From contig DAHVQG010000007.1 in the NCBI GenBank assembly GCA_027317865.1, positions 32,001 through 96,000 of the forward strand: a stretch of 64,000 nt of DNA, read 5' to 3'. A program made the position numbers and the translations under genes. The notes under the pieces are model-generated. The model ran no database searches, was not told where the DNA came from, and saw only the letters and a program-made list of their open reading frames with translations. Source of the DNA: Bdellovibrionales bacterium (GTDB lineage: Bacteria; Bdellovibrionota; Bdellovibrionia; Bdellovibrionales; UBA1609). Positions 49,697 to 64,000 of the stretch are shown here, one piece after another (position 1 is the first letter of the stretch; each line of letters opens with the position of its first letter).

Positions 49697-51199
49697 ATGA
49701 GCTTTTATTCGTTTTACCGCAAGGGTCTTGATTTAGAACCCATAGAAATTGAAGTTACATTGTTGCCGGGTGTTCCGGCCTTTCATGTGACCGGCCTTCC
49801 GGATGTCGCGACCAAAGAAAGCGTCATGCGAATCAAGGCCGCGCTTCGTCACCAGGGGTTTCAACTCCCCAAGCGCGATCAAGTGCTTTTTAATTTGCGG
49901 CCGAACCATGAGCGTAAAACGAGTCAAGGGCTTGATCTCGCTATGGCCGCTGCATACCTGTGGGAGACGAGTCAAATTCCCGAATTTGCGGGATGCGTTC
50001 AACATTCATCGTTCGGAACAGTAAAAGATTCGCGATTATTCTTATATGGCGAACTGGCGCTCGATGGCCAGGTCACAATGCCTGACGATTTGGACTTACT
50101 CGAATCTATGCGGCCGAACGACTATCTTGTTACCGGTGAGGGCGATTGTGCGTTGGCGAGAGGGGTAGTTCGCGATTTGCGTTCATTGCAGTCAATTGAG
50201 TGGCGAGAAGGTCAGTTTAACCCGCCTGATCTCGAAGTCGACCGGCAATTCGACCATCTCAGTTTTTGCAGAAGTGCTGCCGACATTTTAGCGATTATAG
50301 CGGCGGGTGAACATAATTTATTTATCGCCGGGCCGGCTGGGTCCGGCAAAACTACTTTTGCGCGGATTTTGCACACTTGTTTGCGGGTGCCGACCGATTC
50401 GGAGTGGAGGCGAATAGAAAAAATCGAAAAAATTGCCGGCCGTACGGTATCGTCTGCAACAAGTAATTGTGAGCGGTTACTCAAATCACGTTCGCGGCCT
50501 TTTGTTTCTCCGCACCATTCAGCCAGCGAAATCGCCATACTCGGTGGAGGCGTACCGGCATGTGCCGGTGAAATTACCCGTGCTCAACACGGGGTCTTGT
50601 TGCTCGATGAGTTTTTAGAATTTGAACCGTCGGTCGTTGAGTCATTGCGAGAACCGATCGAGCGTCATGAAATCACATTGCTGCGCAAAGGAGTGAAAGT
50701 GACCTTTCCAGCTGACTTCCTTCTAGTGGCGACGACGAATTTGTGCCCATGCGGCGATTTTGTACCTGGCGACGTGCGAAAGTGCTCATACAGTCAGACA
50801 CGTTGCCGCTCATTTTATCAAAAATTAACCGGACCACTCCTTGATCGTTTCGAAGCGGTTTGTTTTACGCAGCAGTGGACGCATCAGCAAGATGAAGATG
50901 TCGCGCAAGTGCGCGAACGCGTGCGCGAAGCGCAATGTTTTGCACGTAAGACGCGCGGGCAAACAATTATGAATTCGCGTTTGGAGCTTGAAGCGCTTGA
51001 GGCAATGGTTCCGCCATTTGTTATGAACAACATGTTGCCTGAAATTCCGCCGTCGCGCCGCCGCCGTCTGGCTCTATTGCGTGTGGCCCGAACAATTGCC
51101 GATTTAGATAGCAGTCCGGACATCTGTACGGAGCATCTTCACGCTGCGGGTCAGTTGACATTGCGGCCGTTTCACGAATTTCGACACGCATTTATTTGA
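49697..51199 (+). CDS. comM: ComM/YifB Mg-chelatase-like AAA+ ATPase
   Basis: GLPD...KES..RI, GELALDG, GPAGSGKT, PHHSAS, GEIT.A..GVLLLDEF, N.CPCG, RVARTIADL. Confidence 0.88.
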   Translation: MSFYSFYRKGLDLEPIEIEVTLLPGVPAFHVTGLPDVATKESVMRIKAALRHQGFQLPKRDQVLFNLRPNHERKTSQGLDLAMAAAYLWETSQIPEFAGCVQHSSFGTVKDSRLFLYGELALDGQVTMPDDLDLLESMRPNDYLVTGEGDCALARGVVRDLRSLQSIEWREGQFNPPDLEVDRQFDHLSFCRSAADILAIIAAGEHNLFIAGPAGSGKTTFARILHTCLRVPTDSEWRRIEKIEKIAGRTVSSATSNCERLLKSRSRPFVSPHHSASEIAILGGGVPACAGEITRAQHGVLLLDEFLEFEPSVVESLREPIERHEITLLRKGVKVTFPADFLLVATTNLCPCGDFVPGDVRKCSYSQTRCRSFYQKLTGPLLDRFEAVCFTQQWTHQQDEDVAQVRERVREAQCFARKTRGQTIMNSRLELEALEAMVPPFVMNNMLPEIPPSRRRRLALLRVARTIADLDSSPDICTEHLHAAGQLTLRPFHEFRHAFI

Positions 51200-51285
51200 T
51201 TCGTTGACCGGCGACCCCCATTTTTGCGATAAGTAGAAGTTCAAACGCAATGAGAATTACTGCGTGATCCTTATGCGTAGTTAAA

Positions 51286-51359
51286 GGTGGCGTAGCCAAG
51301 TGGTTAGGCATCGGTCTGCAAAACCGAGTACGGCGGTTCAATTCCGCCCGCCACCTCCA
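51286..51359 (+). tRNA. tRNA-Cys(GCA)
   Basis: GGTGGCGTAGCCAAGTGGTTAGGCATCGGTCTGCAAAACCGAGTACGGCGGTTCAATTCCGCCCGCCACCTCCA: anticodon GCA, U73 discriminator, encoded CCA. Confidence 0.97.
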
Positions 51360-51661
51360 AAAGAACGCGTCGGAAGTTCCGATGCGCAAAAAGTAAGCAA
51401 AGAATAAATATAAGTAATAATTTTAAACAGTTGGCGAGAAGGCGGTCTCTGTGGTCATTTTTCGATTATCACGCAAAATAACGCGAAATAACTCGATTTG
51501 CGGCATTCGCGTAGTTTTTGAGCGTAGTTGGCGGAGTGTGTACTACAAGTTTTGGTGCTGTTTGGTGTGCTTAGTGGATTTTGTATCTTTGTGCTATGGC
51601 GAAGAAGCCGCAGAACTATTGCAGAGTTTAAAAAAAGTGACGACGAAATAATTTTAAAAAT

Positions 51662-52189
51662 CTAATCGGATACGAAAACAGTCGATGATGGCCCGTGCCA
51701 AGTAACCTGCCAGCGCGACAAAATATCTCGACCAATGAGCACGCCAAAGTTTTGATGCACCATTGGGTTTTGAATTGCGGCATTTAAATTGAAGCTCGGA
51801 ATATGAATCGAAGAAATTTGCAAGTTTTGAATGCCCTTCAATGGTGTGTTGATAAATGCTGCGTCAACGACATAAAAATTTGATTCGCGAAAACCATTTG
51901 CTGTCGCATTGCGACCTTTGCCAACGGAAATCAATCCCAAATGTGTCGCAAGGGATTCGTCGATTGCTGTAGAGCTTGCTCCGGTGTCCAAATGTGCCAT
52001 CACGGGAATTGCTCGACGTGGCACGGGATTTTTACTTGCGACAAATGCGGTGGCCGTTGAAACTTCAAGCAAAAAATTTAGGCCAAGTAATTGTAGGGGC
52101 ATTTGCGATATATGGTGCGCGACCGCTGTGCCAGGCGGAGGAGGTGGTATAATATTAACGCCAAAATTGAAGGTATGAAAGTGCGCCAT
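51662..52189 (-). CDS. Retropepsin-like (clan AA) aspartic protease
   Basis: Catalytic LDTGAS and C-terminal LIGRDIL. Confidence 0.82.
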   Translation of the reverse strand: MAHFHTFNFGVNIIPPPPPGTAVAHHISQMPLQLLGLNFLLEVSTATAFVASKNPVPRRAIPVMAHLDTGASSTAIDESLATHLGLISVGKGRNATANGFRESNFYVVDAAFINTPLKGIQNLQISSIHIPSFNLNAAIQNPMVHQNFGVLIGRDILSRWQVTWHGPSSTVFVSD

Positions 52190-52196
52190 TATCTGC

Positions 52197-52442
52197 CTAG
52201 ACAGCTGAGCGCAGGTAATTTATTTGTTCGTTTTCAGCAAGGACTTGCTGGATAATGAACTGACCAGGTTGAAAATTTGCGGCAGCAAATTCAATTGCTT
52301 GTGCAAATTGGTCGTAGACGCCCTTCACTTTTTCGTCATGTATCACAACGAATTTGTGTTTGTAAGCTGGGTCGTTAAGCCATCCCGATAGATGAGATTG
52401 AAAGTAATTAAAATTTCTGTCTTTTGAAGGATCGTTTGCCAT
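52197..52442 (-). CDS. Small protein (DUF5678-like) upstream of the aspartic protease
   Basis: AAGGTGG RBS; KFVVIHDEKVKGVYD...A...A pattern; 7 bp from the protease gene. Confidence 0.6.
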   Translation of the reverse strand: MANDPSKDRNFNYFQSHLSGWLNDPAYKHKFVVIHDEKVKGVYDQFAQAIEFAAANFQPGQFIIQQVLAENEQINYLRSAV

Positions 52443-52513
52443 ACCACCTTATTATCACACATTTTCTTGCCTAGCCAACATGAGAAAAGTTCCGGCGTTT
52501 CATTTTGCGACAA

Positions 52514-52900
52514 TTAAGGTCTAAGGCCTAAAACAGCGCAGCAAAGCGCCAATGGCCCGCTCGACTCGGTAGCCTCTGATAAAGGATTCCCTTCACGATC
52601 ATAAATCGTAAATTTTACGTTATAACTTGTTTCAGATTGCCATTTCATGAGTACCCGATAGCCAATCTTTCTATGAATCAGACGCTCAATCAATATATGC
52701 TCTGAATTAAAATCTGTTGAGAATTTGGGCAGCGGATCAACTCGCGCGCCGTCTGGCTTTTTCCACCCTCCATACATACGTGGCGAAATTTCATTTAAGT
52801 TTGGCTTCATGGGTTCGGGGGGCCAGCCAAGAAAATCATTGGCGACTTTCTCATCTAATTCTTTGCTAGGATTCATGCTGGCGACCTCACATAATGACAA
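52514..52900 (-). CDS. Phage ABA-sandwich-like domain protein
   Basis: ELD..VA...LGW...P.FSTD...PLALC.A.L pattern; true start probably the internal ATG after GAGG. Confidence 0.65.
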   Translation of the reverse strand: MSLCEVASMNPSKELDEKVANDFLGWPPEPMKPNLNEISPRMYGGWKKPDGARVDPLPKFSTDFNSEHILIERLIHRKIGYRVLMKWQSETSYNVKFTIYDREGNPLSEATESSGPLALCCAVLGLRP

Positions 52901-53110
52901 ACTTAGTCGGTTATAATTGGGATGTTTTCCGCACTTGGAGATAGCACTCTACATGGTAATGCGAAGCTGGGCGAGAATATAATTTTTGGTTACACAGGCG
53001 GCATTGATATCGTGGATCGTGAAATGGGCAACGCGAGAAATACTTCGCGTTGTTGCGGCGTTATGGCGATGAGTTCGTACAGGTATGGAGAATTCACGTT
53101 CATGCAAAAC

Positions 53111-54280
53111 GTGACAAAATGCGTCCCTCCTCGGGAAGTTAGACATTTTTATAAAACGTCCAAAGCTTAGACGGTTTTGGATTTTTACGAAGCAAATTGA
53201 AGACTTGGTGTCGACGTAACGGGTCGGCACGTGGTTTGTACAGGTTAAAGGTATGGGAGACCCGCAATTTGAGGAAGAAATAGGCGGGTCGCCCTAAGCG
53301 AGGGCGTTATGAAAGAACAAAGCCGAAAGACGCTGAGCTTAAAGCTAGCGGGATTCGCGGTTGTCGCATTAGCGATTGCTAGCCTTGCGGCATTTACGAC
53401 AGCTTGTTCAAAAAGTGTGGGGGGCGCGAATAATAGCAATAATAATGGAGCCGCCGATCCTACCTCGCCGACGTCAACGACTGTAGTCGTACCGACGCAA
53501 ACGGTTTTGGACGGAACCGGCGGGGCTCAAGCTCCGTTAACTTTGAACAGCCTAACGGCACTTAATGAGTACCTAGTAGGTGGGAGCGCGGCGAATCTAG
53601 ATGCCGTAAGCGCAGCCGTCGGCGTGAACCTTGTGAAACTGGCCACACTCAGCAACGGTGCGGGCGGTTATGACTACGAATTTGGCGGAGCCGTTACCAT
53701 TGCATTTACCGGCATCGACGGCGGCGGCCCTACGTATGTTGAAGATTACAACTCACACATGCAGGGTAATCCGAACACCGTTAATTCAGATGTACAAAAC
53801 AATGAATATAATTTGGTTTCCGTGCAATATCCGGCTTCAGGTTCATATCCAGGTCAATTGCCGGCCTATCATGGATTTTTTCAGAGCCTCACCTACTGCA
53901 TAATGGGTAATGGCTCATCTACATATGCCTTGTCTCCCGGTCAACCATGTGACGGCGAAATGGTCGGCAGCGCGGTTATTCTCGTCATGGACCAAATGGG
54001 ATTTAACGCAGACGGCGAGGGTGCTACGACAGCAAGCGGCTCCGTATGGTTTTACAATTTCACGACGGGTAACGGTGCCGCACCATTGCCCGACACGAGT
54101 TGCTGGTTTAGCACGCTCGTCCCCTATCAATGCGGTTCATTCTTCAACGGCGGTGATTCGATCCAAACGAAGAGTTCGCTCTACCCGACAGTAACGTATC
54201 TTCCCGATGGCTCAACAGTCACTTACACGGAACTTGGCACATTCACCGGCATGAATTTAAACGAAGCTTTGAACGGACAA
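53111..54280 (+). repeat. Copy 2 of the ~1.17-kb duplication
   Basis: Colinear with 45964-47128, including about 200 bp of upstream non-coding DNA. Confidence 0.93.
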
Positions 54281-54289
54281 CTGCCATGA
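53309..54289 (+). CDS. Orphan lipoprotein (paralog B of 46163..47137)
   Basis: Long identical blocks (GVNLVKLATLSNGAGGYDYEFGGAVTIAFT; PYQCGSFFNGGDSIQTKSSLYPTVT) alternate with divergent segments. Confidence 0.88.
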   Translation: MKEQSRKTLSLKLAGFAVVALAIASLAAFTTACSKSVGGANNSNNNGAADPTSPTSTTVVVPTQTVLDGTGGAQAPLTLNSLTALNEYLVGGSAANLDAVSAAVGVNLVKLATLSNGAGGYDYEFGGAVTIAFTGIDGGGPTYVEDYNSHMQGNPNTVNSDVQNNEYNLVSVQYPASGSYPGQLPAYHGFFQSLTYCIMGNGSSTYALSPGQPCDGEMVGSAVILVMDQMGFNADGEGATTASGSVWFYNFTTGNGAAPLPDTSCWFSTLVPYQCGSFFNGGDSIQTKSSLYPTVTYLPDGSTVTYTELGTFTGMNLNEALNGQLP

Positions 54290-54522
54290 ATGAAGAGCGA
54301 AACTTAACCTAAGTACGGTGGGGCATAAAATAAAAATTATGTATATGATCTCGGCTAATGCCGAAATTGCCCAATTTTAATTGAGGATTAATACGATTCA
54401 ATATGCACTCACGAATTTGTTATTCCCGCGGATTAGCGTGTTTCTGCGTTCTGTACTAGACAAACAAATAGATTTTAGGTTGTTTAGAAAATCTTCAGGT
54501 ATACCGAAAATATCAGGTCTCT

Positions 54523-57381
54523 ATGACCAAACAAATTGAATTTAATCCTACTCCAGAGCAAAAAGCGGCAATTGACCACTTTGAGGGTCCTGCTGTCGTA
54601 TTTGCTGGACCGGGTTCGGGTAAAACTGAAGTTATTGTTAGACGTGTAGTGGCGCTGGTTACCACACGAGGCGTCAAGGCCGATCAGATATTTTTGACGA
54701 CATTTACAAACAAAGCGGCTGATGAGCTTCGAGTTCGGTTGGCGCAAGTTTTACGTGAAACATTGCCCGAGGCCGAAGCCGACAGAATTGCGTCGAAAGT
54801 CAACGTCGGGACCATACATTCAATGTGTTACCGAGTGTTGCGCGAATTTGGATTCAAATACGAGGCCACAGCAAAACCAGTTATGCCCGCCACAGAAGAT
54901 GATCAAATTTTATTTCTGAATCGCTTTTACAATGAGTTTGGACTTAAAAAATTTTACGAGGACACCAAAGAATTTTGGAAGAACGAGGGATTCAAAGACC
55001 CTTTCAGTAATTTTATTACCGGGTTAACTACAGCTTTAAATACGATTTCTGAAGAGTGCGACGACCCGGAAACAGTTCTACCGCAACTCGTGTCCGCTTC
55101 AAAAGACGAAGTGATGCGCGGTTGTTTTGAAGTTTACCTCAAATACCGCGCAAAGATGAAGAGTCTCAATCGCGTTGACCAAAGTATGGTTTTAAATCAC
55201 GTCGGGGCAATATTGCGTGAACACTCGGAGACTGCGAGGCACGTGCGTGAGACTTGGCCTTTCATTCTTGTGGATGAATACCAAGATACAAGTCCGTTGC
55301 AAGATAAGATATTCGGTCTAATCTACTGTCCTGGGTCCAACATTATGGCCGTCGGTGACGACGATCAATCCATTTATCGATTCCGAAACGCGGAGCCAAA
55401 ATTATTTTTGACATTCACAGAACGATTTGGGGTGAGAGCAGACCACCGATATGTCCTTGCCGAGAATAGGCGAGCTACCCCAAGTCTCGTCGATTTTTCG
55501 AAAAAATTCATTGAAAAAAACAAAAACAGAAAATCGAAAGATTTGCGCGCAGCTAAAGATAATCCATCGGGCAATTCTCCAATTTATTTTCAGTCTAACG
55601 ATAAGGGGCAGGCAGGTCTGGCTGTCAGTTGGATAAAGGAACTTAGGTCTTCTGGCAAAATCCCAAATTTTCGAAATGCCGCGATAATTACATTTTCAGT
55701 AGGTCATTTTGCATACGACGTGCAGTCTCATTGCCACTCGCTGGGAATTCCATACCGTATCGAATCGGATAAAGCGTTTTTGAAACATCCAACGCTCAAA
55801 GGTTTTATTGATTTATTGGACGCCGCTCAATCAACCGAGCCACCGACGCCGGGCAAGTTGAATTCAAGAAGCAAGCTTAGAAAAGCTTATGATGCCTTCG
55901 GAAAAACTGGATGTTCTAAGGATGAAATTGTTCGTGATCTTTCATACTGGCAACATCGGCTTGCTCATGCAGAAAGAAGCGATAATCTTTTAAAACTCTT
56001 TTACGCGTTCATTGATCGATATAAATTAATCGGTCGCGAAACGGTATCCGAAACCATGAAAGCACTCGGACAGTTTAGCGTCTTGGTTGCAAAATTCGAA
56101 GAGGGGCGCCGATCAACGGCGTTTCAGCCACCGACCACTATGCTGGATGGAGCCGATGCAGTTGAAGAGCCGTTATCACCATCAGATCAAAAGGCTCTTG
56201 AAAATGTAAAAGAAACTTTTCCGCCGGATTGGCTCAGTCGTCGTGCGAACAGATTTATTCGTTACCTTAGTATGCTGAATCTTTCCAATGAGCCAGAGGA
56301 GCTTGAAGATTATTTGCTCGTAACTACTATTCATAAAGCCAAGGGGTTAGAATTTGATGCCGTCGCTATACTGGGTGTTGATTCTTGGTGCTTTCCGGGC
56401 GATCCTTCTCCGGGCCTTCGCGACAAAGTACGGTTCGAACTTAATGGTCACTCTTACAAGAACTCTGATGTAATTGAAGAAAAGCGTCGACTTTTATACG
56501 TCGCGATGACGCGAGCGCGGCGATCACTTCTGCTTACGGCAGGCGAGAAACAAACGTCTCCATTCATAGCCGAGGCGGATTTAGAATCACTTGGTTCAGA
56601 ACAAATTTTAGAAAATCTACCACATATTTATGCGCCAAAGCAAAAGCGAGAGCTAGAAATACTAAGACTAAGTCACGGTCAGGTAACAAGCTACCTTGAG
56701 TGCCCAAAGCGGTACTTGCTTGAACATCATTATGACTTTCAAGGTCTCGCAACGCCGGCATTGCGCTTAGGTCATGCTTTGCACCGGGCAATTGAAAATG
56801 CGCACCGGTGGCAAATGGAACAGAATCAACCATTAGATGAAACACTTCTGAAGACCATCTTCGCTCAAACTTGGCCGCTGCCAAAGAAAACGAAAGACGA
56901 CTTTCTTCAGTATTCAGATTATGAAAAAACTTTTTTAAACTACTTTACGCATAACAACAAGCTGCAAAGGCAGGTTGTAACAGTAGAGAGCGATCTTGCC
57001 GTTGTCAGGTCATCAAATATTCTGACGGGCAAAATAGATGTGCTTCAATCGCAGAAAGAGAAACCAATTATTGTTGAAATTAAGCTTAATTATAACCGAC
57101 AGAATCTTGAACATGCAAAACAACAACTCAATCATTATGCCTTAGCCTTTCCGGACCAAGAAGTTGATTTGAAAGCTCAATTTCTTCGGGGGCGAAAGTT
57201 TGAAGAAGAAATTGAACGCCGGGATAAAAACGAAGTCAAAGAACAGGTGGCCGAGGTATTTGGGCGAGTGCGGGAACAAAACTTTAAACCAAATCCAAAA
57301 AAAGATAAGTGTTCAAACTGTCGGATGAACAAAATATGTTGCGAGGGCCGTGAGTTGTTGCGGCCGGCAAGGGCTGCTTAG
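54523..57381 (+). CDS. UvrD/PcrA-type SF1 helicase fused to a C-terminal PD-(D/E)XK nuclease with four-Cys motif
   Basis: Helicase: AGPGSGKT, TFTNKAA, VDEYQD, VGDDDQSIYRFR, TIHKAKGLEF, YVAMTRA. Nuclease: CPKRY, G.ALH, GKID, VEIK, QL.HY, CSNC.....C. Confidence 0.92.
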   Translation: MTKQIEFNPTPEQKAAIDHFEGPAVVFAGPGSGKTEVIVRRVVALVTTRGVKADQIFLTTFTNKAADELRVRLAQVLRETLPEAEADRIASKVNVGTIHSMCYRVLREFGFKYEATAKPVMPATEDDQILFLNRFYNEFGLKKFYEDTKEFWKNEGFKDPFSNFITGLTTALNTISEECDDPETVLPQLVSASKDEVMRGCFEVYLKYRAKMKSLNRVDQSMVLNHVGAILREHSETARHVRETWPFILVDEYQDTSPLQDKIFGLIYCPGSNIMAVGDDDQSIYRFRNAEPKLFLTFTERFGVRADHRYVLAENRRATPSLVDFSKKFIEKNKNRKSKDLRAAKDNPSGNSPIYFQSNDKGQAGLAVSWIKELRSSGKIPNFRNAAIITFSVGHFAYDVQSHCHSLGIPYRIESDKAFLKHPTLKGFIDLLDAAQSTEPPTPGKLNSRSKLRKAYDAFGKTGCSKDEIVRDLSYWQHRLAHAERSDNLLKLFYAFIDRYKLIGRETVSETMKALGQFSVLVAKFEEGRRSTAFQPPTTMLDGADAVEEPLSPSDQKALENVKETFPPDWLSRRANRFIRYLSMLNLSNEPEELEDYLLVTTIHKAKGLEFDAVAILGVDSWCFPGDPSPGLRDKVRFELNGHSYKNSDVIEEKRRLLYVAMTRARRSLLLTAGEKQTSPFIAEADLESLGSEQILENLPHIYAPKQKRELEILRLSHGQVTSYLECPKRYLLEHHYDFQGLATPALRLGHALHRAIENAHRWQMEQNQPLDETLLKTIFAQTWPLPKKTKDDFLQYSDYEKTFLNYFTHNNKLQRQVVTVESDLAVVRSSNILTGKIDVLQSQKEKPIIVEIKLNYNRQNLEHAKQQLNHYALAFPDQEVDLKAQFLRGRKFEEEIERRDKNEVKEQVAEVFGRVREQNFKPNPKKDKCSNCRMNKICCEGRELLRPARAA

Positions 57382-57407
57382 ATCAATTCGCACAAAGAGG
57401 GTTCCAA

Positions 57408-58406
57408 GTGGCTTTCAGACAGATTGATGAACCGCTACGAGACGACGAAAAATCCCGCTTTGTAAGACTAGATGGGATCACTCCACAACGAGCCCCCAAG
57501 GACGAGCTTAAAGGATTAGATTTTGACACAATGTTATTCGTTGGTTCTGGAGCAATTGACGGCGGATGGCAACCAATCAGGCAACTTTGTACCGAAATAA
57601 TTGACGGTAGATTTCTGGGGCTCGTCGATTATGGGACTAATAATTGCTACTTCTAAAATGAACCTTATGACCACTTTCTAACCTCGATTGCGTTCATGGA
57701 AACTTCGCTCAGGTCACGCTTCGCGCGCGCACTTCGAGAATCTAATTTTTCTGAAAGTCAGTCGTTTAAGATGTATTCAAATGCTGTGTCTACAAGAGAG
57801 AAAATGGCTGAAATTTTTAGAGCCGAGAAATCACTCCAATTGCGCAGTCTGGACCAACTTGAGCACGGGATCGATCTAGATCGGACTATTGTTGTTACAT
57901 CGAATTGGGACGACTGCGTTTGGTCCGATAAAAGATTTAAGCACTTAATCTACTTACATGGCCACTGCAAAATAAAAAACTCAATTGTTTTGCCTACTCA
58001 GTTTGTAACAGATGAATACCCATTGAAATATTGGATTGACCTACAATATAAAAATAGCAGCTACGAAGCGCGAGTTGCTTTGGGCAACGTGAAATTGATT
58101 TCGGGCTGGCTTAAGGTTATACCGGATCTTCCTAGGGGCGATGAGCAAGATGTTCAACTTGAACTGAGTTACGCACACGATCTACTTCGCGAGGTGATCT
58201 CGTGCGGAAAACTAAAGCGTATGTTAATTTGGGGTTACGGTTTTAATTTGTATGATGCCGAAGTTAATCTTTTACTGACACTTGCGAGTCAAATGTACAA
58301 TCCGAAAATAGAAATTATAAATCCAGATCCCACGGTCTTGCTGAAGGCGGCGCAGGTGTTAGCAGTTCCAATAAACAACATCGGTTATCATCACCCATCA
58401 AAATAA
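57408..58406 (+). pseudogene. SIR2-like domain gene interrupted by an in-frame TAA (57654-57656)
   Basis: ORFs 57408..57656 and 57696..58406 share a frame. LFVGSG lies before the stop; VTSNWD, YLHG, WGYGF..YD and INPD lie after it. Confidence 0.72.
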
Positions 58407-58451
58407 AATGCCGAAGAGTATGGTTGGTGCGACGATTGATCAGAATGACGC

Positions 58452-58679
58452 TTATTCCGCCTCTAAATCCACCAGATTTTTGAGCGGAACTCCAATTGTA
58501 TTAGCAATTCGCGCTAACGTATAAATTTCTGGACTGGTGAGGCCATTTTCAATTTTACTCATTGTTCCACGTGAAAATTCACCTTCGAGATAGACCCTGT
58601 CCTGACTATACCCTTGTTGCTTGCGAATTTTAGCGATATGAGCGCCGAGTTTTTTTAGAAATTGTTTCTTTTTCACCAT
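58452..58679 (-). CDS. XRE-family HTH transcriptional regulator
   Basis: LG..IAKIRKQQGYSQ..SRGTMSKIENG...P...TL.RIA...GVPL..L. Confidence 0.88.
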   Translation of the reverse strand: MVKKKQFLKKLGAHIAKIRKQQGYSQDRVYLEGEFSRGTMSKIENGLTSPEIYTLARIANTIGVPLKNLVDLEAE

Positions 58680-58957
58680 GTAACAATCGTGCCGGATAAT
58701 AAATTGCCATCTCTTCCTATAGGAAGGTATTGTTTAAGCATTCATTGATTTTGCACAAGAATGGTAATTTGAAAGGTGGTCATCTATTAGAGACTTATTT
58801 GTACCATCCGGCCTGAATAAACGGGCCTTGATCAGTTAAGACAATCTACGTTAAGCGGATGATCACCGGGGTCGCGGACTCGAAAAAAGCATGCAACATT
58901 CCCATGGGTTTGTGACCGAAATATGTAAGTTCAAATTAATTAGACCGAGGGAGGAGA

Positions 58958-60169
58958 ATGCCAAAAACACTAAAGCAAAAAATAAAAGCGCTAAAACTAA
59001 AGGACACAAAAATATTAAGCGACGTCGAACACGCCGAGTTCATAAAAGACGTAAGAACTTCGGTAAGCCAAAGCGAGCCGCCGGATGATTCCTTTTGGAG
59101 TAATGATGATTGGAATGTCGACGTTGAGGTTGGATTTCCTAAACGAATTATAACACTCGACATTGAAACTTTCGGGCGCATTGATCCTCGAACAGATGCT
59201 ATGCCAAAGGTGGGAGTCATTGGTATAAAAGCATTTGAATTCGTGAATTCACGCAAGGGGTATATTGCTAAGGACTATCTATGCTATAACGATCAGGAAA
59301 TCGGACATGCAGAAAAAGTCCTTAAGCGCACGAAATGTCCGATCCTGGGTTATAACCTTTTTAACTTTGACTACCGAGTCTTAAACTCTTTTTTCAGTGT
59401 AAGCGATTTAATTCCGAGAACTGTTGATTTGCTTTGGTATTTTGCATCGCGGGCGAAGAGTTGTCGGCGGGCTTTACAAGGCTATTCGTTAAATGCCATG
59501 TCGCAATTAAATTTGAAAAAAAGGAAATTGACGAGTTCCGAAACCGTTCCTGAACTGTTGGCCCAGGGTAAGATCGGCCTAGTCAAGAAGCACAACGAAC
59601 GTGATCTTGATCTCACGTTCTTGCTTTGGCACAAATACTTGGCCAGGAATTGGCTGATAATTTGCCCTCCGTTAATTTCGTATGATCGTTTGCCGTTATT
59701 AGAATCAGATGTCCCATTTCTTGTTGGTCAGCAACCGATGTTAACGGCGGAGCAATGGCCCGCATTTGTAAAAGCTCGCGCCACCGGAAATTTTTTTAAG
59801 AGCCGAAGCGATCGCGACAAGGGGGGCATAATTCTTGTTTGTGACCCGGAATTCGAAATGACGGGCGTGCATCGCGAATTCGGTGAAATCGGTAACATTG
59901 AATACAAAATGTACTACCTGTTCTGTGCGGTATGCGGTTGGAATGTCACTTTGCTGTCTTTAGCTGATCGTCGAGATTACCTACGGTCGAAAGTCTACCT
60001 TCCGTGTCCTCTATGCCATCCAGAGCTTAAATCAGTGTATGAAGAGGCGGGTTTAACGGTGGGACGCAGATACTCCAAAGGGCTGAAATGTCCAATTAGG
60101 GGAGGCGCGGCCGACAAAAAATATTTAATGCACTTAGTTCGAAGAAGCCTGCGTGAATTGACCACGTAA
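58958..60169 (+). CDS. DEDD (RNase H-like, YprB-type) 3'-5' exonuclease with C-terminal Zn-ribbon
   Basis: GGAGGAG RBS; LDIET, GYNLFNFD, HNERD; CAVC...CPLC. Confidence 0.72.
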   Translation: MPKTLKQKIKALKLKDTKILSDVEHAEFIKDVRTSVSQSEPPDDSFWSNDDWNVDVEVGFPKRIITLDIETFGRIDPRTDAMPKVGVIGIKAFEFVNSRKGYIAKDYLCYNDQEIGHAEKVLKRTKCPILGYNLFNFDYRVLNSFFSVSDLIPRTVDLLWYFASRAKSCRRALQGYSLNAMSQLNLKKRKLTSSETVPELLAQGKIGLVKKHNERDLDLTFLLWHKYLARNWLIICPPLISYDRLPLLESDVPFLVGQQPMLTAEQWPAFVKARATGNFFKSRSDRDKGGIILVCDPEFEMTGVHREFGEIGNIEYKMYYLFCAVCGWNVTLLSLADRRDYLRSKVYLPCPLCHPELKSVYEEAGLTVGRRYSKGLKCPIRGGAADKKYLMHLVRRSLRELTT

Positions 60170-60328
60170 TGGCATCAATTTTGTTGCATTTCCTTTCAAT
60201 AACATTGGTTGTTCAATTTTTTTTTAAATTCATTCCTGGCGTTGAAGCAACGGCCTAAAATGCATCGAGATGAGTGGACCAAAGTCGTAATCGATCCAGA
60301 TTCATATTTATTTTGACGATGATAATGT

Positions 60329-61276
60329 GTGGAACCGAACTACTTCATTTCAAATATTAAGCGTCTTGGAATTACTGAAGATGAGGCAAGATTTTTTGGC
60401 GATCTAAGGTTATTTTTGCAAAATGATTCAAAATTTATTTTGAGCGAAACGTTTGGGCTGTGTTCTAGAGCTCGTCAATGCATTGAGGGCTACCAGACCC
60501 ATTGTGACCGAAGCCCACTGTTTGCTTTCGATCCGGATTTATTCGGCTATGGTCAAAAAATGTTTTCTGAGGTTGTTCCAAAAAAAATGGGTCGAAAAAG
60601 AAAGCGGGACACAGAGCGCAGAGTCCCCCTAAAACACCGATACCCACTTATAGATGATGAATATGATTTTGTAGGGTTGTACTCTATTCCGAGTCCTACT
60701 AATTTCGGAAGCATTGACCTTTCACAATTTGACCTAGAAACGAAGCTCTTTCCCGATCTCATGCCGTACTGTTTCGATGTTTACGAGCCACTATTTGAAA
60801 GCACTATTGCAATTTACAGAAAAAAGATACGTCTAGCCTCGGTAGTTTATTTTGGAAAAAATTTGGTAACGTTATGGCAAAGAGCTCAGGAAGGCGACAT
60901 CGGGGCTGCCGCAGCTATTGCTCGGATTGAACGTCATGTTTTTAAATTTAATGACCTACCAGGCTCTCGCGTTTTCGCAAAATTGGCGAAAAAACCTATG
61001 CGGCCAGGAATGGCAAATAAATGGCAAATAAAGATTGATCAAGCACCGAGGCTTGGCGGAGCCTGGAAGCGGATATTGGTGATTGCCTATTGTTGGAATT
61101 CGCGATTCATTCACCTGAAGTTGAATGAGCTATTGGCAGTGCTTGTTGGCCTAGACGTTGCGGATAAGAATCTCAATTGCGATACTTTAAAGAGATTTCT
61201 ATATAGGTATGGATTCAAAAAGTCGCCCCACCGCATCCCGCCAAGAGGGAAAAAGCGAGCAATCACGAGTAGTTAA
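60329..61276 (+). CDS. Hypothetical basic protein, possible C-terminal DNA-binding helix
   Basis: 315-aa ORF co-oriented with the replication genes; no family recognised. Confidence 0.6.
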   Translation: MEPNYFISNIKRLGITEDEARFFGDLRLFLQNDSKFILSETFGLCSRARQCIEGYQTHCDRSPLFAFDPDLFGYGQKMFSEVVPKKMGRKRKRDTERRVPLKHRYPLIDDEYDFVGLYSIPSPTNFGSIDLSQFDLETKLFPDLMPYCFDVYEPLFESTIAIYRKKIRLASVVYFGKNLVTLWQRAQEGDIGAAAAIARIERHVFKFNDLPGSRVFAKLAKKPMRPGMANKWQIKIDQAPRLGGAWKRILVIAYCWNSRFIHLKLNELLAVLVGLDVADKNLNCDTLKRFLYRYGFKKSPHRIPPRGKKRAITSS

Positions 61277-61333
61277 ATAAAATCCAATTTGTCATCCTTA
61301 TTTCTTATCAAAATTCTGCCATGGTTCTGCTTT

Positions 61334-61615
61334 ATGAATTCAAAAGACGCACAACTAATCGCAGTGGATTTTGAAACCGATGACGTTCAGTTTTTCAACA
61401 AGAAGAATCGCAAGGAGCTAAGCTGGTCAGGACACCCGCGATTGGCCCAGGCAATGATTGTCAGTAATCGAGATGAAACGGCCTGCAACGCTACAGAAAA
61501 TATAAAGGACCTTTCTGTGCCAGACGGTTCTGTGATTTTGTTTCATAACGCTGCGTTTGACATTCAGGTTGGAATAAATTCGGGAGTGTGGTGTGAACAC
61601 AGTTTCAAAGTTTGA
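61334..61615 (+). CDS. Family A DNA polymerase, N-terminal part of the 3'-5' exonuclease domain
   Basis: ExoI AVDFET and ExoII FHNAAFD; ends at TGA overlapping the next ORF in the +1 frame. Confidence 0.75.
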   Translation: MNSKDAQLIAVDFETDDVQFFNKKNRKELSWSGHPRLAQAMIVSNRDETACNATENIKDLSVPDGSVILFHNAAFDIQVGINSGVWCEHSFKV

Positions 61616-63041
61616 TTTTCATTGTACGGCGACAATGGCGAAACTTTCTCATAATTTGCGGAGTGCCCGATTGAAGGATTTGGCGCTAGACCTGCTAGGT
61701 GAACAAAAAATCGTTCGCTACGAAGAAGCGAAAACGGGCTCGGCTGAAGGTTTTTTGAACTATGCAAAAAAGGATGCAGATTATACCTTTCGCCTTTTTC
61801 CGGTTCTGAAGCGAGAACTCGATGACAAAAATCTTTGGGAACTGTACGAATTTGTCGAAAAACCATTTTTGCTTATCAATTTGGAGTGCCAGAGAAACGG
61901 TATTCGTTACGATGTTGATGCAGCCCGCGATGAAATTTCATCTCTTGACGAGAAGATTGCGCTTACAAAGTTAAAGCTCAACGACCCGAAAATGAACTGG
62001 AACTCACATAAGCAACTTCAAAGAAAACTCTATGGGGAGCGCGGCATTCCACTTGCGTACCATAAGGGCAAGGTATCTACCGGTAAACGGGCGTTACAAT
62101 CTCGGGCGCAAGATTCACTGGTACGAGCCGTGTTAGAGCTAAAAGAATGCGAAGCATTGAAGCGACAAATCTTAACCATTAAAAAATTTGTCGACCCAAA
62201 TACCGGAAGAATTCACGGATATATAAATCCGCTTGGGGCTGATACGGGCCGAGTAACTTCGTCTTCCCCGAATCTTCAGAATATTAAAAAGGACTCAGTT
62301 TTGAGAAAAATGTTCGTAGCGAGCAAAGGCTATAGCTTGATAGCACTTGATTTCAGCCAGATTGAGCCCAGGGTGCTCGCTCACTTTTTAGGAAAACAAA
62401 CACCATTTGCACGGCTATTCGACGTTGACGAAGATTTTTATGGCTTGCTCGCTTCTGAACTAAAACTCGAAATTCACAAACAAAGTGATGCTCGCGCCGT
62501 AGTTAAGCAAATTGTCTTGGCAACACTTTATGGTATGGGTCCAAAAACTTTAAGTGAAAATCTTAAAGTCACTCAACTAAATGCGTCCGAGATTCTGAAC
62601 TTATTTTTCTCGAAGTTTCCAGAGATTGTTGAATTCAAAAATCAAATGATCGCAGAGGCTCGTGAAAAAGAATATGTAATTGGGCTTTTGAACCGTAGGC
62701 GCTACATTAAGAGTTTAAACGACGTCGATAACAAGTTGAAATTTCGAGCCGAACGGCAAGTGTTGAATTCAATAGTACAAGGTTCTGCAGCTACTATTTT
62801 TAAATTCAAAGGATGCGAACTTCGACGGCAACTGCCATCGACCGTTCGATTTCTTCATCATGTCCACGACGAGTATATTTTAGAGGCACCAGAACAAGAC
62901 GCGTCTGTTATGTATCGACTAGCAAAGCAAATTTTAGAAAGACCGCTACCATGGTTCTCAATTCCGTTGAAAGTCGATGGCGGAATAGGTCGATCATGGT
63001 TGGATGCAAAAAACGCAAACAAAAAGAAAGGGGGTGAATAA
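61593..63041 (+). CDS. Family A DNA polymerase, rest of exonuclease domain plus polymerase domain
   Basis: ExoIII YAKKDA, TGRVTSSSPNLQNI, motif A DFSQIEPR, motif B R...K...LATLYG, QGSAA, motif C VHDE. Confidence 0.92.
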   Translation: MNTVSKFDFHCTATMAKLSHNLRSARLKDLALDLLGEQKIVRYEEAKTGSAEGFLNYAKKDADYTFRLFPVLKRELDDKNLWELYEFVEKPFLLINLECQRNGIRYDVDAARDEISSLDEKIALTKLKLNDPKMNWNSHKQLQRKLYGERGIPLAYHKGKVSTGKRALQSRAQDSLVRAVLELKECEALKRQILTIKKFVDPNTGRIHGYINPLGADTGRVTSSSPNLQNIKKDSVLRKMFVASKGYSLIALDFSQIEPRVLAHFLGKQTPFARLFDVDEDFYGLLASELKLEIHKQSDARAVVKQIVLATLYGMGPKTLSENLKVTQLNASEILNLFFSKFPEIVEFKNQMIAEAREKEYVIGLLNRRRYIKSLNDVDNKLKFRAERQVLNSIVQGSAATIFKFKGCELRRQLPSTVRFLHHVHDEYILEAPEQDASVMYRLAKQILERPLPWFSIPLKVDGGIGRSWLDAKNANKKKGGE

Positions 63042-63042
63042 A

Positions 63043-63324
63043 ATGAATGTATCAGAAGTCAGAGTGTTCCCGGTTCCGGGAAACTCAAAACTGAAGGCAA
63101 AGGCTGATGTGACTTTTCTTTTAGAGAACGGCGCACGCTTAGCCGTAAAAGGTTTTAGAGTTCACGATGATGGAGAAAAGCCACCGTGGGTTGGAGTACC
63201 CACGGAGCGTGTAACTAGAAACGGGAAAACGGAATATTTCAATAATATTTGGATCGATGCGATTGGCCAATCACAAGTCTATCCGAAAATTATAGAAGAA
63301 TACAACCGGTTGATAAAAAAATAG
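63043..63324 (+). CDS. SpoVG-like nucleic-acid-binding protein
   Basis: GGGGGTG RBS; MNVSEVRV....KLKAKADVTF...VKGFRV....WVGVP.....G...Y...I.EEY follows the SpoVG pattern. Confidence 0.75.
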   Translation: MNVSEVRVFPVPGNSKLKAKADVTFLLENGARLAVKGFRVHDDGEKPPWVGVPTERVTRNGKTEYFNNIWIDAIGQSQVYPKIIEEYNRLIKK

Positions 63325-63370
63325 CCGAATACTGTTTAAACATTCAGTTTCGGCGCATCCAAGTGGATGT

Positions 63371-63407
63371 GTTTTCACGGGGGCGCCGTTAGGCGCCCCC
63401 TGAAAAC
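63371..63407. other. GC-rich inverted repeat between the SpoVG-like and Rep genes
   Basis: GTTTTCA-C-GGGGGCGCC-GTTA-GGCGCCCCC-TGAAAAC, preceded by the small hairpin CATCC-AAGT-GGATG. Confidence 0.8.
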
Positions 63408-63481
63408 CAAAATGTTCTCGGTAAAGCTCGGAGGCGAGTTAATGGAGTGGTTTATTCAAAATTTTACGGAAGAGAGGACAA

Positions 63482-64000
63482 ATGAAAAATTCGGGAATGA
63501 ATAATCTCAGAGAAGTTCGGAGAATTTATTCGGAGGTAGCACGGAGTAATTCCCTTGATTGTATTAAGCGTAACTCCAACAAGGGCAACTCGGCGCGAGG
63601 GCTAGCTGGGATCGAAGCTCCATGTCGAGCGGCAAAATACATTTTAAAAGGGGTAGCCGACGAGGACGGTCTGTTCCCTCACTATAAAACTTTTTGCAAG
63701 TCGTATAACTGCGAGTTTTGTGGCCCCAGAAAGAGAGCCTTAATTCGACACGCAATTGCCCTTGCTATTGAAAAATACAAATTGATTTCCTTTGCGACAC
63801 TAACGCTTGATCCGAAGACTTGCAAATGTGGGCCAGAGGGTTCGGCTAAATATATTCGGCGAGCATGGAATAAGTTTCGTGTACTTCAGAAACGTGAATT
63901 TAACAGGGGGTTAGAGTTTGTCGCAGTAATTGAGTTTCAGAAAAATGGCTACGCTCATCTTCATATTGTGTTTGATCGGTATATCCCGCACACATGGTTG
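63482..64000 (+). CDS. Rolling-circle replication initiator (HUH endonuclease), 3'-truncated by window edge
   Basis: Manual translation, open to the window end: CKSYNCEFC, motif I FATLTL, AWNKFR, motif II EFQKNGYAHLHIV. Confidence 0.88.
   Translation, partial: MKNSGMNNLREVRRIYSEVARSNSLDCIKRNSNKGNSARGLAGIEAPCRAAKYILKGVADEDGLFPHYKTFCKSYNCEFCGPRKRALIRHAIALAIEKYKLISFATLTLDPKTCKCGPEGSAKYIRRAWNKFRVLQKREFNRGLEFVAVIEFQKNGYAHLHIVFDRYIPHTWL

Follow-up and report, generated by a model that had tools for sequence, protein, structure and literature searches.

A tRNA-integrated element from a Bdellovibrionota genome with a family A DNA polymerase, a SpoVG-like protein and an HUH Rep, probably replicating by a rolling-circle mechanism

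The element and its integration site

The stretch of DNA analysed here, referred to as the window, comprises 64,000 nucleotides of a Bdellovibrionales bacterium (contig DAHVQG010000007.1, positions 32,001 to 96,000). Its right-hand part carries an integrative element of 15.06 kb located at the 3' end of a tRNA-Cys gene; the host is a Bdellovibrionota genome obtained from a mine-drainage metagenome. The element includes a family A DNA polymerase (PolA), a SpoVG-like protein and a replication protein of the HUH type (Rep), and it continues past the end of the window. The sequence beyond this point corresponds to the locus L001, and coordinates above 64000 are window-equivalent, i.e., the L001 position plus 50000. 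The boundaries and the right-hand genes are the following:

51286..51361, plus strand: tRNA-Cys (51286-51359) and attL core CCGCCACCTCCAAA (51348-51361), from ARAGORN and a repeat search
61334..61615, plus strand: PolA piece 1, 93 aa, N-terminal part of the 3'-5' exonuclease domain, with ExoI (DFET) and ExoII (HNAAFD)
61593..63041, plus strand: PolA piece 2, 482 aa, ExoIII and the complete polymerase domain (PF00476)
63043..63324, plus strand: SpoVG-like protein, 93 aa, from Pfam, profile and AlphaFold2/Foldseek comparisons
63355..63420, plus strand: cis element, with a small hairpin (63355-63370), a long hairpin (63371-63407) and the motif TTCTCG (63415-63420), from folding and motif searches
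63482..64000, plus strand: HUH Rep (PF23343), cut by the window end; the full open reading frame (ORF) extends to 64345
64454-64858, plus strand, beyond the window: Zn-ribbon/coiled-coil gene that follows Rep
64957-65268, plus strand, beyond the window: excisionase-like gene (Xis) with a helix-turn-helix domain (HTH_17, 47.5 bits)
65259-66362, plus strand, beyond the window: tyrosine integrase (Int; Phage_integrase, 76.5 bits)
66412-66425, beyond the window: attR, 14-nt core

The original prediction described this region as an element integrated in a tRNA-Cys island. ARAGORN did place a tRNA-Cys at 51286-51359, and both a predicted integrase and a repeat of the 3' end of this tRNA were found just past the window end. 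The 14-nt direct repeat CCGCCACCTCCAAA is exact and occurs at 51348-51361 and at 66412-66425 (L001 16412-16425), the second copy being 50 nt past the integrase stop codon; from the position of these two copies, at the 3' end of the tRNA and past the integrase, the length of the element is 15.06 kb. When 51001-64000 is divided into 13 bins of 1 kb, the GC content of 12 of them is approx. 0.41-0.46 and that of the remaining one 0.50; in the preceding 10 kb it is approx. 0.45-0.54. On the attR side, a short palindrome formed by both strands of the tRNA-Cys acceptor stem stands immediately before the 14-nt core (L001 16401-16425, window-equivalent 66401-66425).

Two genomes of the same genus keep comM and the tRNA-Cys gene (99% identical in G040), and all the element genes are absent from them. 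A clean empty site was not found in these congeners, in which the downstream synteny differs; in G040, the counterpart of the gene located after attR in the genome of the window is found in inverted orientation, at a distance of 4.5 kb from tRNA-Cys. A DNA polymerase I (Pol I) of the host itself, a protein of 871 aa, is encoded on another contig. The promoter and terminator scans gave results at or under the shuffle expectation, and no RNA run was listed as containing the stretch.

Conservation of the gene order

The order PolA, SpoVG-like, Rep, Zn ribbon, Xis and Int is present in the window and in three other loci, i.e., L004, L067 (from metagenomes) and L103 (= G245, detected by surveying 401 genomes that belong to the phylum); the locus L005 (= G069) shows the same order with the Zn-ribbon gene absent. 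Three of these four additional loci belong to the Bdellovibrionota and the other is a metagenome contig without taxonomic assignment. Across the five loci, which coincide in order and orientation, the proteins are 40-57% identical. L004 has an att pair of its own, a 13-nt repeat located at the 3' end of a tRNA-Met and 63 nt past int, which gives an element of 10.2 kb. In one further metagenome-assembled genome (MAG) from NCBI, Rep and PolA are two locus tags apart, and in five more Rep/PolA pairs the longest contigs of both proteins are of identical length (22428, 8015, 12677, 3722 and 8212), which is suggestive of their co-location. The joint occurrence of PolA, SpoVG-like and HUH Rep, for which the original prediction proposed a search, was hence found in the same order in four loci besides the window, and this argues against the cluster being a chance mosaic.

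The polymerase and its frame change

The polymerase of the window copy is encoded in two reading frames. The frame that starts with the ATG at 61334 has 93 codons and stops at 61615, the frame changes at approx. 61592-61617, and the remainder of the protein is found in another frame (61593-63041), where the PF00476 domain is detected with an E-value of 7.1e-76 (256 bits). Piece 1 shares 40-41% identity with the N-terminal part of the uninterrupted PolAs from L004 and L005, and piece 2 is 51% identical to the PolA from L004. In these relatives the protein is encoded by a single ORF (611/557 aa in L004 and 559 aa in L005), with complete exonuclease and polymerase domains. The description of a co-oriented, Klenow-like PolA therefore stands in part: a family A polymerase domain and a 3'-5' exonuclease are present and no Pfam match to a 5'-3' exonuclease domain was obtained, but in the window copy these parts do not constitute one gene in one frame. 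A profile of the PolA clade matched Klentaq, Bst and Klenow with E-values from 1e-74 to 1e-89 (1e-82 to 1e-89 for Klentaq and Bst).

The frame change was reproduced in the Logan assembly of the probable source run (0 differences, depth 9.7), a run that is not independent of the sample; a second run (X2) covers parts of the stretch, the site of the frame change not being among them. Aside from the frame change, polA appears to be sound: of 119 residues conserved without variation across nine members of the clade, the two pieces jointly retain 115, and the catalytic residues, with motifs A, B and C, are kept. The interruption of its exonuclease domain would be a recent event. The element present in the window may either depend on the host polymerase, or use an exonuclease-less enzyme produced from an internal start, or be at an early stage of decay.

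A search with the PolA from L004 revealed 10 relatives with 44-54% identity (E-value of 1e-98 or better), including the 482-aa piece from the window; after these proteins there is a gap down to approx. 30-33%, where cellular Pol I enzymes of 900 aa are found. A quick maximum-likelihood tree with 48 rows placed the 12 PolAs from elements in a single clade, with 100% support in the Shimodaira-Hasegawa-like approximate likelihood ratio test (SH-aLRT), on a long stem and apart from the Pol I of the host. A scan of metagenome contigs with the PolA alignment was dominated by cellular Pol I, and Rep or the SpoVG-like gene was absent from the vicinity in 78 of the 80 loci detected, the other two being members of the clade. 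As judged from these comparisons, which include the tree against cellular and phage PolA that had been proposed as a check, the PolAs of the elements constitute a small, long-branched clade distinct from cellular Pol I.

The five Reps encoded in PolA-bearing elements also form one clade, with a support of 98/100 in a careful Rep tree. Since PolA and Rep each represent one clade in these elements, the two genes seem to have travelled together since a single event, in which PolA would have been acquired once by the element lineage of the Bdellovibrionota. This bears on the idea that the region is a chance mosaic or a defence island carrying PolA and Rep as unrelated cargo. Defence-like genes do exist in the left arm (a UvrD-nuclease with GajB-like matches), SIR2 and TIR genes are found in the relatives, and PolA matches the PolA-like model for defence-associated reverse transcriptases (DRT) from PADLOC with an E-value of 4.4e-42. 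Nevertheless, this match reflects general similarity to PolA, as indicated by the much lower E-values of the clade profile against Klentaq and Bst, and neither the single clades of PolA and Rep nor the repeated order and orientation in five loci with proteins of 40-57% identity would be expected from unrelated cargo; we disfavour this explanation and regard it as highly improbable.

The SpoVG-like protein

The gene that follows polA starts with an ATG at 63043, one base past the PolA stop codon (63039-63041), as the original prediction had indicated. The Pfam SpoVG score of the window copy is weak (22.8 bits versus a cut-off of 29.6), and the copies from L067 and L103 exceed the cut-off. A profile built with 14 relatives matched the solved SpoVG structures in the PDB with an E-value of 2.5e-10, and an AlphaFold2 model with a pLDDT of 94.1 gave 10 best Foldseek matches that are all SpoVG chains, with TM values of 0.65-0.79. 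On the basis of the sequence profile and the predicted fold, the small protein is assigned to the SpoVG family. SpoVG proteins are poorly understood nucleic-acid binders; to our knowledge, they are not known for coating single-stranded DNA, the role that had been put forward for this protein.

The SpoVG-like gene, sometimes in two copies, is located directly 5' of rep in all the 13 integrated loci examined, five of which are of the PolA type and eight are PolA-less. The hosts of the latter are a member of the Verrucomicrobiaceae, one of the Planctomycetales, two Omnitrophota, two Zixiibacteriota, an organism titled "Deltaproteobacteria" and one unclassified MAG; their elements carry the gene of either a large serine recombinase or a tyrosine integrase, and in some cases they span only 4-5 kb, with a tRNA gene at their end. 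Because the gene is adjacent to rep in these PolA-less relatives too, the SpoVG-like protein appears to be in the first place the partner of Rep, its pairing with PolA being secondary. Small integrative elements that pair a SpoVG-fold protein with Rep occur in at least six phyla, and no description of them was found; the fixed partnership of the two genes offers a function that can be tested.

Several of the PolA-less loci could be delimited as mini-elements of approx. 4-5 kb (L009 8465-13608, L010 8372-12701, L011 8423-12063, L008 8098-12747 and L012 446-4323), from MAGs of Omnitrophota, Zixiibacteriota, Planctomycetales and others. They are composed of a gene for an unknown protein of approx. 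270 aa, a SpoVG-like gene in one or two copies, Rep, a Zn-ribbon gene and a large serine recombinase, the place of which is taken in L011 by a tyrosine integrase; several of them end at a gene for tRNA-Asn, tRNA-Asp or tRNA-Glu.

Rep and its relatives

The HUH Rep announced in the original prediction starts at 63482 and extends past the window end. The full protein has 287 aa and matches PF23343 (REP_ORF2-G2P) with 51.0 bits, the cut-off being 27.8; the part contained in the window reaches 35.6 bits. An alignment of 21 relatives revealed as invariant an N-terminal cluster of Cys residues, T106-L-T-L109, the histidines H159 and H161 (HLH), and the tyrosines Y198 and Y202 (YxxKY). The invariance of both tyrosines leaves no ground for the objection, raised in advance, that Rep could lack the catalytic Tyr. 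A total of 123 relatives were detected with an E-value of 0.001 or better; scanning genome contigs with the single protein gave no match, and the scan based on the alignment yielded 10 genomic loci. The only record of the plasmid database PLSDB with a relative of Rep is an archaeal (Halobacterium) plasmid of 1442 bp (NZ_CP089596.1, H13), with 34.9% identity over 56% of the query.

The family to which Rep belongs includes the initiators of inoviruses and plectroviruses, and the only relative of Rep that comes from a viral collection (IMG/VR) is encoded in L016, an inovirus-like genome whose Rep is 32% identical. From this, and from the presence of several ORFs without annotation, it could be thought that the element is a prophage or a satellite of an unrecognised small virus, with its structural genes among the unannotated ORFs. 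We consider this very unlikely. None of the 17 ORFs of the element matched capsid, portal, terminase, Zot-type ATPase or coat proteins in PHROGs, the unannotated genes of the left arm are not common to the window, L004 and L005, and the relative in IMG/VR is a single one. Pfam and PHROGs scans of the same 17 ORFs revealed no gene for capsid, portal, terminase or conjugation functions; the assignment to a known prophage family, which had been named as a possible refutation, thus found no phage structural gene to support it. The viral contig itself (5423 bp) carries a Zot-family assembly ATPase and DUF2523 together with the Rep of the same Pfam family, and it has no SpoVG-like gene.

The intergenic region before rep

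Another characteristic feature of the element is the structured region located between the SpoVG-like gene and rep. The strong hairpin noted there in the original prediction is real, and it is part of a conserved design with two hairpins and a TTCTCG motif. The arms of the long hairpin (63370-63387 and 63392-63409) fold with an energy of -27 kcal/mol and a z-score of -5.41, a value that none of 200 shuffled sequences equalled. The five PolA-type elements all show this layout, i.e., a hairpin of 5-6 bp, a hairpin of 11-17 bp in which the letters vary, and an invariant TTCTCG 5-10 nt further on, whereas the motif is found in the equivalent region of one of eight PolA-less relatives; since the other four sequences had served to define TTCTCG, L005 is the only independent test. 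The stems are too divergent to be aligned, and the hairpins were folded one sequence at a time. The likeliest role of this intergenic element would be that of a candidate origin or nick region, or of an attenuator of rep.

An arrangement of this kind, with a hairpin and a conserved motif a few bases further on, is also seen in transfer origins, and it would fit an element that is a mobilizable island, in which Rep would be a transfer relaxase acting at an oriT-like hairpin-motif, and PolA with the SpoVG-like protein would work as a primase-polymerase that synthesizes the second strand in the recipient. The presence of a small nucleic-acid-binding gene 1 nt after polA agrees with this possibility. 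A precedent is also at hand in the primases of mobile genetic elements formed by a PolA and a small single-stranded DNA-binding protein, as described in PMC10061031. We nevertheless judge it unlikely: the scan of 17 ORFs revealed no gene for conjugation, for a coupling protein or for an FtsK-like protein, the fold of the small protein is that of SpoVG and not an OB fold, and the SpoVG-like gene is found beside Rep in PolA-less elements; in addition, the intact PolAs keep complete exonuclease domains instead of being truncated, and among viral proteins Rep is closest to a replication initiator from a filamentous phage.

A proposed mode of replication

Considering the gene content, its conservation and the boundaries, the locus is probably an excisable integrative element that replicates by a rolling-circle mechanism, composed of an inherited right-hand backbone (PolA, SpoVG-like, the cis element, Rep, Zn-ribbon, Xis, Int and attR) and a left arm of variable cargo. 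In the mechanism that we propose, Int and Xis would excise the element as a circle, and Rep, with its Zn finger, HUH and YxxKY motifs, would nick at or near the hairpin-TTCTCG region upstream of its own gene, giving rise to rolling-circle replication. The SpoVG-like protein would bind nucleic acid as an accessory or copy-control partner of Rep, and the Klenow-like PolA would replace the host Pol I in the early extension of the nicked 3'-OH, in the conversion of the single strand to duplex, or in both. Host Pol I has specific roles at rolling-circle origins. According to PMC10201439, it takes part in plasmid replication. By analogy, we infer that the element PolA stands in for the host enzyme.

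Several observations weigh against this proposal. PolA is broken in the window copy, so that the polymerase step cannot run there as proposed, and in two of the five loci (L067 and L103) it is truncated by the contig end; the placement of its clade beside two Bacillus/Listeria phage PolAs depends on a quick tree with long branches and three phage sequences. The backbone has no conserved helicase, the role of the SpoVG-like protein is deduced solely from gene adjacency, and a nick consensus of the pC194 type could not be placed consistently across the five elements. The comparison relies on few genomes, with Rep in only 4 of the 401 sampled genomes of the phylum, the window's genome included.

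A more demanding version, which we advance tentatively and would not favour at present, is that PolA, the SpoVG-like protein and the HUH Rep could form a self-contained replisome of an integrative element, in which Rep nicks at the hairpin-TTCTCG origin, extension from there falls to the element's own polymerase, and loading or regulation of the pair is the task of the SpoVG-like protein. If true, the element would be a family A, Rep-primed counterpart of the pipolins; it would also give a first functional model for the mini-elements with SpoVG-like, Rep, Zn-ribbon and recombinase genes that are spread across phyla, and a role for the SpoVG fold in the initiation of replication. Rolling-circle replicons use host polymerases, and the integrative elements known to us that carry a polymerase of their own use one of family B; here, a Klenow-like family A clade occurs exclusively next to a single clade of HUH Rep, on tRNA-integrated elements. 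The small size of the parts and the existence of intact relatives of the L004 type make nick-and-extend biochemistry feasible.

Comparison with known systems

No description of the combination of PolA, SpoVG-like and HUH Rep was found in the literature, with the proviso that the supplementary lists of PMC10061031 might hold cases outside the Bacillota. The assertion that no element class with this combination has been described is thus upheld as regards the combination itself, but related kinds have been described in PMC2440964 and PMC10061031, and the element adds to known kinds rather than forming a separate category. Regarding SpoVG, the report 10.1101/2025.11.28.691083 deals solely with the host protein, and 10.1101/2025.08.03.668216 is unrelated.

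By analogy, the closest systems would be the pSAM2-type elements and the PolA-SSB islands of Bacillota (SSB, single-stranded DNA-binding protein). According to PMC2440964, pSAM2 is integrated in a tRNA gene and replicates by rolling circle through RepSA, and elements of this type have approx. 10-20 kb, are inserted in tRNA genes, and carry a rolling-circle Rep beside xis/int, with a terminal tyrosine integrase; their replication follows excision (PMC2440964), as we propose for the element studied here. The element shares the hallmark of this type, i.e., integration at a tRNA by a tyrosine integrase and an excisionase near rep. In contrast, Pfam scans of its ORFs found no FtsK/SpoIIIE-like TraSA, Pra/Kor regulators or Nudix gene, Rep reaches 18.2 bits against the RepSA model PF20199 (cut-off of 34), and the host belongs to the Bdellovibrionota and is not an actinomycete; PolA, the SpoVG-like protein and the Zn-ribbon protein are additions. 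The score below the cut-off for RepSA, the lack of a detected FtsK-like gene and the non-actinomycete host are the reasons for not considering it an actinomycete integrative and conjugative element (AICE).

The second group comprises primases formed by PolA and a small single-stranded DNA-binding protein, found on SCCmec and other islands of Bacillota, for which second-strand synthesis after transfer has been proposed (PMC10061031). PMC10061031 and PMC10201439 describe a family A polymerase gene followed by that of a small nucleic-acid-binding protein on a site-specific island (CcPol-MP), with the pair located upstream of a replication initiator/helicase gene and recombinase genes. The differences are that the small protein of the element has a SpoVG fold versus an OB fold, that an HUH Rep and not a helicase is encoded downstream, that the recombinase is a tyrosine integrase, and that the intact relatives have complete exonuclease and polymerase domains, CcPol having been compared by its description.

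Other systems show a more limited resemblance. Pipolins and casposons are integrative elements with their own family B polymerase and no HUH Rep, and pipolins are associated with tRNA genes; the likeness lies in the self-encoded polymerase, whereas that of the element belongs to family A, accompanied by an HUH Rep, and is not the family B enzyme typical of pipolins. In the copG-repB operon of pMV158, a small regulator gene is located directly 5' of rep. Plasmids of the pMV158/pC194 type and the gpII protein of inoviruses resemble the element in having an HUH/Tyr initiator, a small gene 5' of rep and a structured region, and the Pfam family is shared with inovirus G2P; however, they exist as free replicons, rely on Pol I and Pol III from the host, and have neither an integrase nor a polymerase of their own.

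The left arm and other upstream genes

The left arm and the two genes that separate it from polA contain the following features:

51662..58679, mixed strands: variable left arm, cargo, from Pfam, PHROGs, PADLOC and NCBIfam scans
51662-52189, minus strand: aspartyl-protease-like gene
53309-54289: 326-aa protein
54523-57381: UvrD helicase fused to a PD-(D/E)XK nuclease
within 51662..58679: small ORFs, and ORFs of 82 and 236 aa after the UvrD-nuclease
58452-58679, minus strand: XRE-type helix-turn-helix regulator
58958..60169, plus strand: 403-aa protein, exonuclease motifs of the DEDD type and pairs of Cys at the C-terminus, recognised by eye
60329..61276, plus strand: 315-aa ORFan directly 5' of PolA, from a database search

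The XRE regulator is the only gene of the left arm with a counterpart in L004 or L005, and the arms of the relatives carry other genes (SIR2_2 in L004, a Zn-finger/CapR protein in L005, and ThsB-TIR in L006). It had been suggested that the UvrD-type helicase could assist replication; this was not sustained, as neither of the two relatives with the upstream arm available (L004 and L005) has a counterpart, and from this distribution the helicase looks like variable cargo. The UvrD/PcrA-like helicase-nuclease has 952 aa, its nuclease is similar to Cas4/AddA, and it shows strong GajB-like matches in PADLOC with no GajA partner. Together with the ORFs of 82 and 236 aa, it may be defence cargo. A SIR2-like reading of the 236-aa ORF, made by eye, was discarded, since it has no Pfam or PADLOC match and BLASTP against the SIR2_2 protein from L004 gave an E-value of 0.41.

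The 315-aa ORF found only itself among 1.84 billion representative proteins. In the same position, L004 (336 aa), L005 (329 aa) and L017 have a protein that is mutually related; the comparison of the 315-aa ORF with the 329-336 aa proteins from L004 and L005 was not significant (hhalign probability of 2.7), nor was that with the proteins of approx. 270 aa from the PolA-less elements (0.2). The 403-aa protein has no match in Pfam, NCBIfam or the PDB, and it matches weakly the exonuclease part of the polymerases in PHROG 17 (E-value of 2.5e-5). It would be a separate exonuclease gene, present in the one element in which the exonuclease domain of PolA is interrupted.

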